A stretch of 64,000 bases of DNA from Betaproteobacteria bacterium HGW-Betaproteobacteria-3 (GTDB lineage Bacteria; Pseudomonadota; Gammaproteobacteria; Burkholderiales; Burkholderiaceae_C), in assembly GCA_002842205.1 (NCBI GenBank), contig PHCI01000010.1, positions 28,460-92,459 of the forward strand, in the 5' to 3' direction. The translations under genes were made by a program, and so were the position numbers. The notes below the pieces were generated by a model. That model saw nothing but the letters and a program-made list of their open reading frames with translations, was not told the DNA's origin and did no database searches. Below, in pieces: positions 4,491-60,753 of this stretch (the first letter of the stretch is position 1; each line of letters begins with the position of its first letter).

Positions 4491-4559
4491 TGGCTACCAT
4501 AAAGATAGCTAACTATTTCCTTTTGACGGGGGCTAGATGCCTTTTTTATTACAAATATG
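4491..4559 (+). repeat. AT-rich dispersed repeat, copy 1 (type A tail)
   Basis: tggctaccataaagatagctaactatttccTTTTGACGGGGGCTagatgccttttttattacaaat. It fills the mobB-thrC spacer and covers the thrC stop codon and last 8 codons. Confidence 0.8.
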
Positions 4560-6005
4560 GGCCACATAGGCCTGCACGGCACGCGTCTCGGCGGGCATCA
4601 CCTGCACGCGCTTGGGCAAGGCTTCAATGCCTTCGAATCGGGCCGGCCGCTCGGGTAGGCGCCCCAGCGCCTCGACGATGGTTTCGGCGAACTTGATGGG
4701 CAGCGCCGTCTCCAGCACGATCATCGGCACCCCCGGCTGCAGGTGCTCGCGCGCCACCTTGACGCCGTCGGCGGTGTGGGTGTCGATCATCACACCAAAG
4801 CGTGCGAAGGTGTCGCGGATGGTGGCCAGCCGGTCGGCATGGGTGCTCTTGCCGCTGACGAAGCCGTAGCGCGTGGCGGCCTGGGCAAAGGCCGGGTCGG
4901 CGCCGAGGTCGAACCGGCCGGTCTGGCCCAGCGCGTCACCGAACAAGGCCTTGACCCTGGCGCCATCGCGGTCCAGCAGGTCGAACACGAAACGCTCGAA
5001 ATTGCTCGCCTTGGAAATGTCCATCGACGGACTGGAGGTCTCGTGCGTGTCGGCACTGGCGCGCAGGCGGTACACCCCGGTGCGGAAGAATTCGTCGAGC
5101 ACGTCGTTCTCGTTGGTGGCCACCACCAGCTGCGCGATGGGCAGCCCCATCATGCGGGCCACGTGGCCGGCGCAGACGTTGCCAAAGTTGCCGCTGGGCA
5201 CCGTGAAGCTGACTTGCTCGGTGTCTGAACGGGTCGCTTGAAAATAACCCGCGAAGTAGTAAACCACCTGCGCCAGCAACCGCGCCCAGTTGATCGAATT
5301 CACGGTACCGATGCGGTACTGGCGCTTGAACGCCAGATCGTTCGAGACGGCCTTGACGATGTCCTGGCAGTCGTCGAACACGCCCTCGATGGCGATGTTG
5401 TGGATGTTGTCGTCCATCAGGCTGAACATCTGCGCCTGCTGGAACGGGCTCATGCGGCCGTGCGGGCTGAGCATGAAAACGCGCACGCCCTGCTTGCCGC
5501 GCATCGCGTATTCGGCCGCGCTGCCGGTGTCGCCGCTGGTGGCGCCCAGAATGTTGAGCTCTTCGCCGCGGCGTGCCAGTTCATACTCGAACAGGTTGCC
5601 CAGCAACTGCATGGCCATGTCCTTGAAGGCCAGCGTGGGGCCGTTGGACAGGGCTTCCAGATAGAACCCGACCTGTTCCGGGCCTGCCGAAGGGTCTTGA
5701 AGCGGCTTCAGCGGGACGATGGCCGCCGTGCCGTACACCGCTTCGGTGTAGGTCCTGGCGCACAGCGCCTGGAGGTCGGCCGCGGGAATGTCGTCGATGT
5801 AGAGCGACAGCACCTCGAACGCCAGCGCGGCATAACCACCCGCTGCGCCGCCGTTGAACACGCTGCGCCAGCGTGCCAGCGTGGCCGCATCGACTTGGGG
5901 GTAGCGCTCGGGCAGGTAAAGCCCGCCATCCGGGGCCAGGCCTTCGAGCAGGATTTCACAAAAGCGGCGGCGCTCGGGGTGGCCACGCGTGGAGAGGTAG
6001 AGCAC
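4533..6005 (-). CDS. thrC: Threonine synthase
   Basis: 490 aa (GTG start) with MLYLSTRG..., PLP-lysine context PTLAFKDMAMQ and GATSGDTGSAA. Confidence 0.95.
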   Translation of the reverse strand: MLYLSTRGHPERRRFCEILLEGLAPDGGLYLPERYPQVDAATLARWRSVFNGGAAGGYAALAFEVLSLYIDDIPAADLQALCARTYTEAVYGTAAIVPLKPLQDPSAGPEQVGFYLEALSNGPTLAFKDMAMQLLGNLFEYELARRGEELNILGATSGDTGSAAEYAMRGKQGVRVFMLSPHGRMSPFQQAQMFSLMDDNIHNIAIEGVFDDCQDIVKAVSNDLAFKRQYRIGTVNSINWARLLAQVVYYFAGYFQATRSDTEQVSFTVPSGNFGNVCAGHVARMMGLPIAQLVVATNENDVLDEFFRTGVYRLRASADTHETSSPSMDISKASNFERFVFDLLDRDGARVKALFGDALGQTGRFDLGADPAFAQAATRYGFVSGKSTHADRLATIRDTFARFGVMIDTHTADGVKVAREHLQPGVPMIVLETALPIKFAETIVEALGRLPERPARFEGIEALPKRVQVMPAETRAVQAYVAHICNKKGI

Positions 6006-6024
6006 GTTCAGGTCCTTGGCAGGG

Positions 6025-6339
6025 TCACAGGCTGATGCCGTAAATTTGGATGTCGATCCAGAACCGCGAGCCCAGCAGCAGCAGGTAGCCGCCGATCAGG
6101 ATGAGCCAGTGCAGCACGCGGTCGATGCGGTTGTCGGTGCGTTCGAGCAGTTCGAAATACAGCCAGGCCGCAAAGAAGCTGCCCAGCCCGTTGACCATGG
6201 TCTGCCACCAGCCCAGCTGGCCGCCCAGCGCCAGCGTGACCAGCACTGCAAACCAGAAAGCCAGGTGCCAGCGCGGCATCCCGACGTGGGCCATCTTGAG
6301 CAGCGCCGCCAGCGTGAGGGCGGCCACAACAGTGGGCAC
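6025..6339 (-). CDS. Small integral membrane protein (about 3 predicted TM helices), function unknown
   Basis: 104-aa ORF between hom and thrC. It has a GTG start with AGGAG 7 nt upstream, hydrophobic helices and GC-rich third positions. Confidence 0.55.
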   Translation of the reverse strand: MPTVVAALTLAALLKMAHVGMPRWHLAFWFAVLVTLALGGQLGWWQTMVNGLGSFFAAWLYFELLERTDNRIDRVLHWLILIGGYLLLLGSRFWIDIQIYGISL

Positions 6340-6405
6340 GGCAGGTCTCCTGGGGTTGAGGCCGGTTCATGGATTCTGCCAACGCACACATGCCGCCGGA
6401 TGCCC

Positions 6406-59572: not shown

Positions 59573-59592
59573 TACTGATTAAAACCACAGTA
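59573..59592 (-). promoter_or_regulatory. LexA (SOS) box candidate
   Basis: TACTGATTAAAACCACAGTA, 18-37 nt upstream of the radical SAM ATG. It matches TACTGT-N8-ACAGTA at 11 of the 12 specified positions. Confidence 0.6.
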
Positions 59593-59690
59593 TATGCCTC
59601 CACCCCCGCAGACGGCCCCGCCCCTGAGCCGCTGCCCGGCGTCACCGGCCGCCGTCAACCCCGCGCGCCGTCTCCGTCTAGGCCCCGCGT

Positions 59691-60659
59691 TCAGGCGATG
59701 TGGACCGCCATCAGACGCTCGCGCGCTTCGAGGTATTCACGCTTGAGGCGCGCCACCAGATCGGCCGCGCTGACCACTTCGGTGATCGCGCCGATGCCCT
59801 GGCCGCAGCCCCAGATGTCCTTCCAGGCCTTGGCCGAACCGCCGCCGCCGAAATTCATCTTGCTCGGGTCGCTTTGTGGCAGGTTGTCCGGGTCCATGCC
59901 GGCGTTGCGGATGCTGCCCTTGAGGTAGTTGCCGTGAATGCCGGTGTAGAAGTTGCTGTAGACGATGTCGTCCGAATTCGATTCGGCGATCATCTGCTTG
60001 TAGGCGTCCACGGCACGGGCCTCGTGGGTGGCGATGAAGGCCGAGCCGATGTAGGCGAAGTCGGCGCCCATGGCCTGCGCCGCCAGCACCGCGCCACCGC
60101 TGGCAATGGCGCCCGACAGGGCCAGCGGGCCGTCAAACCACTGGCGGATTTCCTGGACCATGGCGAACGGGCTCTTGACGCTGGCGTGGCCGCCGGCACC
60201 GGCCGCCACGGCGATCAGGCCGTCGGCGCCCTTCTCGATGGCCTTGTGCGCAAACACGTTGCTGATGACGTCGTGCATCACCACCCCGCCCCAGGCGTGC
60301 ACGGCCTGGTTCACGTCTTCACGGGCGCCCAGGCTGGTGATGACGATCGGCACCTTGTACTTGGCGCACAGCGCCATGTCGTGCTCCAGCCGGTCGTTGG
60401 ACTTGTGCACGATCTGGTTGATGGCAAACGGCGCGGCCGGGCGATCGGGGTGGGCGCGGTCGTGCGCCGCCAGCGCCTCGGTGATCTCGGCCAGCCATTC
60501 GTCCAGCTGCTCGGCCGGGCGGGCGTTGAGCGCGGGCATCGAGCCCACCACGCCCGCCTTGCATTGCTCGATCAAGAGCTTGGGGTTGCTGATGATGAAC
60601 AGTGGGGAGCCGATGATGGGCAGGGGCAGCTGGTTCAGGGGAGCGGGCAGTCTGGACAT
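59691..60659 (-). CDS. Nitronate monooxygenase / NAD(P)H-dependent flavin oxidoreductase (NMO family)
   Basis: 322 aa with PIIGSPLFIISNPKLLIEQCKAGVVGS.. and ..AGGH.. TIM-barrel FMN motifs. Confidence 0.85.
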   Translation of the reverse strand: MSRLPAPLNQLPLPIIGSPLFIISNPKLLIEQCKAGVVGSMPALNARPAEQLDEWLAEITEALAAHDRAHPDRPAAPFAINQIVHKSNDRLEHDMALCAKYKVPIVITSLGAREDVNQAVHAWGGVVMHDVISNVFAHKAIEKGADGLIAVAAGAGGHASVKSPFAMVQEIRQWFDGPLALSGAIASGGAVLAAQAMGADFAYIGSAFIATHEARAVDAYKQMIAESNSDDIVYSNFYTGIHGNYLKGSIRNAGMDPDNLPQSDPSKMNFGGGGSAKAWKDIWGCGQGIGAITEVVSAADLVARLKREYLEARERLMAVHIA

Positions 60660-60683
60660 GGTGTGATTGGGATGAGTGAAGCA

Positions 60684-60753
60684 AAATTTGAATAAAAACA
60701 GGCCTTAGCCCCCGTCAAATCAAACTAGTTTGCTACTTAATTAATAGTAAACG
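60684..60753 (-). repeat. AT-rich dispersed repeat, copy 9 (type A tail, most complete)
   Basis: The minus strand reads cgtttactattaattaagTAGCAAactagtttgaTTTGACGGGGGCTaaggcctgtttttattcaaattt. Confidence 0.85.

Follow-up and report, generated by a model that had tools for sequence, protein, structure and literature searches.

We analysed a 64-kb stretch of contig PHCI01000010.1 from Betaproteobacteria bacterium HGW-Betaproteobacteria-3 (the whole stretch, hereafter the window; ~65% G+C), together with ~1.3 Mb of loci fetched from relatives, and we show that a short AT-rich element of ~68 nt recurs in the window about once per 6 kb (11 copies per 64 kb). Judged by alignment to orthologues, most of the sites compared appear to overwrite existing sequence and to add no length. 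We see about an even chance that the element is a composite recognition site in duplex DNA for a putative trans-acting protein or complex, maintained by selection or drive, and it does not appear to be currently mobile in this Comamonadaceae-like lineage.

Anatomy and independence of the copies

A first-pass annotation of the window had proposed the dispersed family, and an nhmmer profile (columns 10-80 of a 44-copy alignment) recovered every copy listed there within a few bases and on the strand given. In total, 11 window copies were found, ten of them clear and one a relic, with five on the + strand and six on the - strand, confirming that both orientations occur. The core 12-mer TTGACGGGGGCT has eight window matches at ≤1 mismatch against 0.51 expected, and the two-block pattern TAGCAANCT-N5-14-TTGACGGGGGCT has three against 0 expected; a chance origin of the family is therefore excluded. 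A core match at 50693-50704 inside dnaJ was set aside as chance rather than as a family copy. The possible relic suspected at 44557-44626 was matched at 44558-44625, on the minus strand only and weakly (E = 0.03). Two earlier descriptions proved too strong: the core that had been called invariant is exact in five of the 11 window copies (including the truncated one at 45086-45126) and carries one to three mismatches in four others, and the element makes up ten of the 25 patches with GC ≤40% over 50 nt rather than almost every AT-rich patch, the remainder including ordinary promoter regions and Fur-box-like palindromes.

The family consensus, ~68 nt long, reads aaTTGCTAC-N7-9-ATAGCAAACTAT-NN-CCATTTGACGGGGGCT-N3-4-GGCC-aATTT-N2-3-TTCAAAAT, with GGCC-AAAAAGCTTGAAAAT as an alternative tail, in agreement with the two tail types (A and B) described before. 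Two conserved blocks of 11 and 16 bp lie within this 68-bp motif. In a test chosen post hoc, the profile of AT fraction over the 71 model columns exhibited a periodogram peak at 10.5 bp (power 1.15), compared with a mean power of 0.36 in run shuffles (p = 0.007; column shuffle, p = 0.0002), and the blocks containing G/C are centred at about columns 21, 31, 42, 52, and 63. This ~10.5-bp phasing of the blocks suggests recognition of the duplex from one face. The hairpin with TTGCTA/TAGCAA arms noted in the first pass survives only in weak form: the longest stem averages 3.9 bp versus 3.1 bp in shuffles, reaching at least 5 bp in 12 of 48 copies and staying at 4 bp or less in the other 36.

The core TTGACGGGGGC (e.g., window 4523-4534) is identical to a universal 16S rRNA segment, GAATTGACGGGGGCCCGCAC, near position 915, and AAACT stands at an equal offset upstream in both. 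The identity is probably a coincidence. From the titles, papers matching the core string presumably contain it within 16S rRNA sequences or as a primer.

We compared 40 copies pair by pair in their variable parts, the 5' arm with the loop (16 nt) and the tail (24 nt), and in both the identity is that of a column-shuffle null. The only outliers are the orthologues shared between the window and the metagenome-assembled genome (MAG) Burkholderiaceae bacterium JTS-AC255, and one partial duplicate (loci L028 and L041). Parent-offspring pairs with shared neutral positions are missing, and there is therefore no sign of copying with many intact members; neither subfamilies nor a cloud around a master sequence emerged from the variable-part identities of these 40 copies. 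In three orthologous pairs (~10% genome divergence), high-information columns differ by 8.3% and low-information columns by 20.5% (Fisher p = 0.02, 213 aligned positions). The conserved blocks thus change 2.5 times more slowly in orthologous copies, indicating that they are protected in place.

Colinearity with orthologues and lineage dialects

No length was gained at two of the three comparable spacers. The element-bearing aminotransferase-hom spacer measures 38 nt, against 40-62 nt for three element-free relatives, and the aminotransferase C-terminus ENYRKRSTL*, encoded by the 5' third of the element, is colinear with EGWRLRHGAA* of relatives L052 and L053. The spacer between the acyl-CoA dehydrogenase (ACAD) and NMO genes measures 124 nt with the element, compared with 101-111 nt of GC-rich, element-free sequence in three relatives. 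These element-free spacers (L140 9899-10001, L141 9889-10001, and L142 9890-10001) hold TTGACA-N21/22-CAGAAT, matching the unusually long spacing of TTGACG-N22-CAAAAT at the orthologous window site 60685-60752.

Copies inside genes always use the sole stop-free frame of the element, in which xTA GCA AAC TAT .. TTG ACG GGG GCT is translated as (I/V)ANY..LTGA, and the G+C content at third codon positions (GC3) drops to 0.22-0.48 within them, against 0.82-0.90 for the genes that hold them. ArgC, whose copy sits in the most variable segment of the protein, has 308 aa compared with 308-311 aa in orthologues, and the element region aligns without gaps (AIDSVANYQDLTGADGQKPLKIV vs AIDSVAACATLTLANGQKPLKIV). 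In four genomes this ArgC segment forms an AT-rich dip (GC3 0.27-0.41 vs 0.71-0.88 elsewhere in the gene), which is absent in ~30 of 34 other Burkholderiales ArgC genes. At 57235-57296 in the window, the copy within an EptA-like gene encodes the native fifth transmembrane helix (NFSIFIASFVLLAGVTAIIYKDF), which aligns gap-free to EptA 5FGN and MCR-1; GC3 is 0.22 in the element versus 0.90 and 0.88 in the flanking codons. Likewise, three genomes have an element-like second transmembrane helix and loop in DsbB, colinear with the E. coli protein (net zero gap), even where the genome has one exact-pattern match only. The signal peptide of a Bug-family protein is element-like in four Rhodoferax MAGs, and a weaker similarity was seen in the SCO1 signal peptide of three of these four, and possibly in L074.

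The cross-genome scan, run with the two-block exact pattern on one genome per species (596 Gb), matched 46 loci. JTS-AC255 contributed 36 of them; this MAG is ~90% identical to the window in overlaps and has copies orthologous to those of the window at two sites. Rhodoferax-like MAGs gave one exact-pattern match each. Loci L004, L035, and L039, from MAGs of Clostridia and Methylococcaceae and from Schlesneria, were treated as chance matches; in 596 Gb, a 20-nt pattern should match ~10 times by chance. An exact-pattern scan with ACTATNNCCATTTGACGGGGGCT returned no matches in JGI metagenome contigs and viral contigs, blastn with the consensus returned none in PLSDB plasmids or INPHARED phages, and no description of the element was found in the literature on Comamonadaceae intergenic repeats or uptake sequences.

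Across relatives, the consensus takes lineage-specific forms, hereafter dialects. Loci L058 and L059 (55% G+C) carry GCTACATATTTAATAGCTGCTTGCGCA...CAGGCC..CTAAAAAAC, with three dialect copies within 2.2 kb in L059 and one after argC in L058, while L140-142 (60-63% G+C) carry ATAGCTGAA..TGACCATTTGACGCTGGG..GCCAATTT and L074 a further variant consensus. The window relic at 44558-44625 and the copy at 46329 share TAGCTGA... with older forms in relatives, and on this resemblance we regard the relic as an older dialect of the family. The copy embedded in ArgC reads TAGCAAACTAT-CAAGAT-TTGACGGGGGCT in JTS-AC255 and L057 and TAGCTGCTTGCGCA-ACA-TTGACGCTGGCA in L058/L059, the latter being the 14-nt block of the dispersed copies in those genomes. 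The two versions are separated by ~11 substitutions and six amino-acid changes. One old site has therefore moved between dialects by substitution, a change for which transposition cannot account, and frequent gene conversion is disfavoured because it should leave shared variable positions, of which none were seen.

Window copies and their gene context

Gene calls and Pfam tables bear out the location at gene boundaries that had been described for the family. Among 46 placed copies, ~87% are intergenic: 16 lie in sense and 14 in antisense orientation between co-directional genes, nine between convergent genes, and one between divergent genes, with six in called genes. Orientation is thus neutral to transcription (16 sense, 14 antisense), which fits duplex recognition and argues against polar signals.

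The full copy at 4490-4557 (+; type A tail, nhmmer 53.8 bits) lies antisense to the thrC-mobB operon; its G5CT core contains the stop codon of thrC (4533-4535), and its tail supplies the final ~8 codons of ThrC. The element-encoded ThrC C-terminus (window 4533-4560) reads ...AHICNKKGI*, compared with ...AQHCPRP* in Hydrogenophaga, and an orthologous copy is present in JTS-AC255 locus L021. Locus L051, from a strain 97.7% identical to the window, was considered and rejected as an empty site for this copy. At L051 position 13106 (window ~4641), within thrC and ~90 nt short of the element, its similarity to the window breaks off; its thrC has another, more native-looking C-terminus and its downstream genes differ. 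Because the similarity stops short of the element, we read this as a rearrangement or an assembly chimera, uninformative as an empty site.

The full copy at 7753-7820 (-; 48.7 bits) is in sense orientation within the aminotransferase-hom operon; its 5' part forms the last ~10 aminotransferase codons (ENYRKRSTL*; window 7791-7820), and its tail stops 1 nt short of the hom ATG. Close by, the hom-thrC gap of the window lineage spans ~400 nt (6025-6405, -) and includes a 104-aa hydrophobic open reading frame (ORF) without a Pfam match; hom and thrC abut or overlap in relatives L052-L054, and Hom has 448 aa in the window versus 440 aa in most relatives. Another full copy (12056-12121, +; 51.0 bits) separates the convergent genes for a PhoH-like ATPase and dnaB. 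At L047 1-4280, in a strain 97.7% identical to the window, phage-like genes (including an integrase fragment, DUF7673, and DUF6283) lie upstream of dnaB, where the window has rpsF-priB-rpsR-rplI.

A truncated copy at 22511-22552 (+; 31.0 bits, model positions 3-44) retains the 5' two-thirds and stops after TTGACGGGG. The diverged copy at 22798-22865 (-; 39.8 bits), with a type B-like tail, lies upstream of and antisense to a TonB-dependent receptor gene (Pfam). These two copies, 245 nt apart and convergent, are the only inverted doublet seen. Separate from the repeat family are the AT-rich, Fur-box-like palindromes AAATGCGAATGATTCGCATTTGA and AAATGCGACTGATTCTCATTTAT at 22650-22700 and 25845-25880, in the upstream regions of the receptor gene and tonB-exbB-exbD. 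The best-scoring window copy (28193-28259, -; 57.3 bits) follows exbD, has the exact two-block pattern, and ends in the type B tail GGCCTAAAAGGCTTGAAAAAT.

The relic (44558-44625, -; 12 bits, E = 0.033), with GCTAC-N7-GTAGCTGATTGCGA..., lies between MarR and HxlR regulator genes. Directly upstream of a gene for an FAA-hydrolase-like protein, the copy at 45086-45126 (+; 38.5 bits, model positions 9-49) has neither 5' arm nor tail; its core is exact, as is its two-block pattern. The antisense copy at 46329-46397 (-; 36.8 bits), diverged in its left block (TAGCTGAAG...) and ending in a type B tail, takes up the 89-nt spacer that separates the FAA-hydrolase-like gene from FKBP, with 11 nt to spare at either end. 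The in-frame copy of the EptA-like phosphoethanolamine transferase gene (57235-57296, +) scores 24.1 bits (E = 6e-6), and the last full copy (60685-60752, -; type A tail, 48.9 bits), in sense orientation in the ACAD-NMO spacer, has an orthologous copy in locus L029. JGI metagenome contig L050 is 100% identical to the window across 17.7 kb.

Competing explanations and implications

If the element is a duplex-DNA site, the contact blocks with G/C (CTAC, TAGCAAAC, CC, GACGGGGGC, GGCC, C) would recur every ~10.5 bp on one face of the helix, and the A/T-rich stretches in between would allow bending or wrapping of the DNA on the reader. Sites lie for the most part where operons join or genes end, whichever way they point. 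Point substitution, favoured by selection or by biased transmission (for example, preferential uptake), would create and preserve them; such an origin would have them overwrite spacers, gene termini, and tolerant coding segments without a change in length. As the specificity of the reader drifts, sites genome-wide would follow, producing lineage-specific dialects. Candidate roles include chromosome or topological organisation, insulation of operon junctions, and DNA uptake. Of the three functions offered in the first pass (mobile element, small RNA, and protein binding), protein binding fits the evidence best; that such binding takes place is our inference. To our knowledge, none of the consensus sites of IHF, ArgR, FNR, Fur, sigma-54, sigma-32, or ECF sigma factors fits the motif, as compared by eye.

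Several observations weigh against recognition by a protein reader. The reader is putative, and the information in the motif (~35 constrained positions) lies far above what a single transcription-factor site needs. The periodicity test was selected after the data had been viewed, the ortholog constraint test covers only the 213 aligned positions, and block conservation in JTS-AC255 is inflated because its copies were picked by an exact match in two blocks. The thrC-mobB junction is ~90 nt longer than in Hydrogenophaga, as an insertion would give, and the copies in SrkA and an HAD hydrolase sit where the protein exceeds distant PDB homologues by 8-9 residues. In JTS-AC255 and L057, the intergenic site that follows argC holds a decayed orthologous copy, which has not taken up the new dialect. 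Finally, the L012 copies at 454-519 and 1053-1113 share 5' arm, loop, and spacer, and L028 195-262 and L041 498-560 have the 3' half and 12 nt of adjoining flank in common; duplicative spread therefore exists to some extent, and on these shared parts we conclude that local duplication or recombination occurs between some copies.

The alternative that the family is an old non-autonomous element of the repetitive extragenic palindromic (REP)/REPIN or miniature inverted-repeat transposable element (MITE) type, copied in trans, vertically inherited, mostly ancient, and partly decayed, is in our judgement unlikely, albeit with several features in its favour. Copies are dispersed, mainly intergenic, and in both orientations, with one in divergent promoter regions and nine in convergent regions; the consensus is lineage-specific, as in REP elements; weak internal inverted repeats occur, including a CTAC...GTAG pair; a few copies share variable parts; scores grade from intact to relic, as in a birth-death process; and the longer thrC-mobB junction can be read in the same way. 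The mobility proposed in the first pass was nevertheless not upheld. Neither terminal inverted repeats (longest inverted match between 26-nt end windows 4.66 nt vs 4.42 nt shuffled, 41 copies) nor target-site duplications (longest direct flank match 4.66 nt vs 4.86 nt for mismatched flank pairs) were found, and subfamily structure, which copy-and-paste with retained intact copies should give, is missing. In addition, constraint holds the conserved blocks where they stand, copies in genes and spacers run colinear with orthologues, and the copy in ArgC took on a new dialect by substitution. The absence of a transposase from the window was confirmed, its genes all being housekeeping or metabolic, and neither the window nor the Pfam tables for loci retrieved through protein look-up contain a RAYT gene; the only transposase-type genes in those tables are an unrelated IS91-type Y2 transposase and phage integrases. 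On a 3.2-Mb contig, L142 (18427-20540) carries genes for a Y2 transposase of the IS91 family and an integrase of phage type, ~8 kb away from the NMO gene and with no link to the repeat.

The element resembles REP/BIME and REPIN-RAYT sequences in being a short extragenic repeat that occurs where operons join and at 3' ends but seldom in divergent promoter regions, with a species-specific consensus and long vertical persistence at orthologous sites; REP/BIME elements of E. coli are bound by host proteins. It differs from them in lacking a strong G+C-rich palindrome (CTAC...(G/A)TAGC is present, with stems mostly ≤4 bp), REPIN doublets, and a near-identical cloud around a master, and in having copies colinear inside genes and no RAYT gene in the tables above. 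Like MITEs (Correia/NEMIS, ERIC), it is small, AT-rich, dispersed between genes, and non-coding, although it has none of their terminal repeats, target-site duplications, or subfamilies and adds no length at two of the three comparable spacers. Rickettsia palindromic elements likewise have in-frame, translated copies inside protein genes, but these are insertions that add a peptide segment, whereas here native residues are overwritten and the lengths of ArgC, EptA, and DsbB are kept. The likeness to mycobacterial interspersed repetitive units (MIRUs) lies in the intercistronic operon spacers and the possible overlap with flanking stop and start codons; MIRUs are tandem repeats oriented with the operon, and the element occurs as single copies in either orientation. 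The element evolves much as uptake sequences do and is located much as REP/BIME elements are, yet by the features compared it is a member of neither family, being too long, sparse, and intergenic for an uptake sequence and too little palindromic and clonal for REP or REPIN elements.

A DNA uptake signal, in which biased uptake and recombination (molecular drive) would accumulate the motif and dialects would follow the receptor, seems to us improbable, and so, to the same degree, does its specific form, a third, independently evolved uptake-signal system of ~68 bp, bipartite and helically phased, in groundwater and freshwater Comamonadaceae-like bacteria. We likewise hold it improbable that, in such a system, transformation-driven drive overwrites spacers, termini, and transmembrane-helix codons while dialects co-evolve with the receptor. 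Uptake signal sequences (USS) of Pasteurellaceae and DNA uptake sequences (DUS) of Neisseriaceae occur in both orientations and accumulate in coding sequences, in tolerated frames and at poorly conserved residues, altering the encoded peptides (Findlay and Redfield 2009, PMC2817400). In line with this published behaviour, the element is over-represented in either orientation, both within and outside coding sequence, and arises by substitution. It also shares with uptake sequences a copy number that would reach hundreds by extrapolation, copies that show no genealogy, accumulation by substitution in coding sequences, lineage dialects, and a core flanked by phased A/T-rich tracts. Moreover, its ArgC copy sits in the most variable segment of the protein, its copies resemble independent draws from one profile, and a type IV pilin gene is present in related locus L057. 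However, two long conserved blocks in 68 bp with ~35 constrained positions stand against the known 9-12 bp cores, and a density of ~1 per 6 kb against ~1 per kb. Uptake sequences number 765-1892 copies per genome with 34-65% in ORFs (PMC2817400), while the element is overwhelmingly (~87%) intergenic. The redundant neighbouring copy after argC decayed, though drive would tend to keep all copies. USS and DUS act in competent cells with biased uptake, which such a role would require of these uncultured bacteria.

A promoter or regulatory module appears to us less probable again. In such a module, TTGACG would serve as a -35-like element, the CAAAAT/TAAAAT of the tail as a -10-like element, and the AT-rich left half as an UP element, with operator-like blocks for a dedicated regulator or sigma factor. 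It is in line with this reading that many sense copies stop 0-50 nt short of a start codon and that the three element-free ACAD-NMO spacers hold the similar pair of hexamers at the equivalent place. The balance of sense and antisense copies and the nine convergent versus one divergent placements argue against it, as does a consensus scan for sigma-70 sites (window 1-20000), which made four promoter-like calls with no copy among them; the spacing between the -35-like and -10-like parts of the element would be 21-23 nt, compared with 16-18 nt in sigma-70 promoters.

The reading as a small RNA, structured RNA motif, or terminator transcribed with neighbouring genes is very improbable and is largely refuted. 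Hairpin-like arms, a short G+C inverted repeat after the G5 run, the T-rich type A tails, and one weak terminator call (4528-4544; 6 pairs, 3 G-C; one of three copies in the 20 kb scanned) would fit it. An intrinsic terminator would have a G+C-rich stem of ≥5 bp with a T run behind it. The RNAalifold consensus, on the other hand, has four pairs at -0.85 kcal/mol without covariation or compensatory change, folding z-scores per copy average -0.77 and -0.87 on the two strands versus shuffles, stems are mostly ≤4 bp, and copies lie in both orientations relative to transcription. The small-RNA module put forward in the first pass therefore did not stand up. No copy has an Rfam match at the gathering score or at E ≤ 5, the first pass likewise having recognised no named family in the element, and ARAGORN found no tRNA or tmRNA. 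Equally remote is a gene-fragment master copy (e.g., the segment in argC or dsbB) that repeatedly gives rise to intergenic copies, with the dialect mirroring the host gene: the ArgC segment does equal its own genome's dialect in two lineages and the dsbB segment is element-like in genomes with one exact-pattern match, but the consensus has CCAT and mostly type A tails as opposed to AGAT and a type B tail in ArgC, ArgC shares no variable positions with other copies, and colinear copies in several unrelated genes leave no privileged source gene.

If recognition by a dedicated reader is correct, a widespread uncultured lineage would keep a long DNA word about once per 6 kb, or several hundred times per genome of a few Mb, under a constraint strong enough to recode proteins: the ArgC loop would have changed by about six amino acids, the ThrC and aminotransferase termini would have been rewritten, and helices of EptA and DsbB would be written in rare AT-rich codons. 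Annotators should then expect AT-rich, "foreign-looking" stretches within native genes, and dialect-specific models would offer sharp markers for binning and tracking these lineages. The reader, once found, could reveal a new chromosome-organising, insulating, or DNA-uptake system, and the family would be a clear example of co-evolution between a genome-wide cis signal and its reader, a behaviour so far documented mainly for short uptake sequences.

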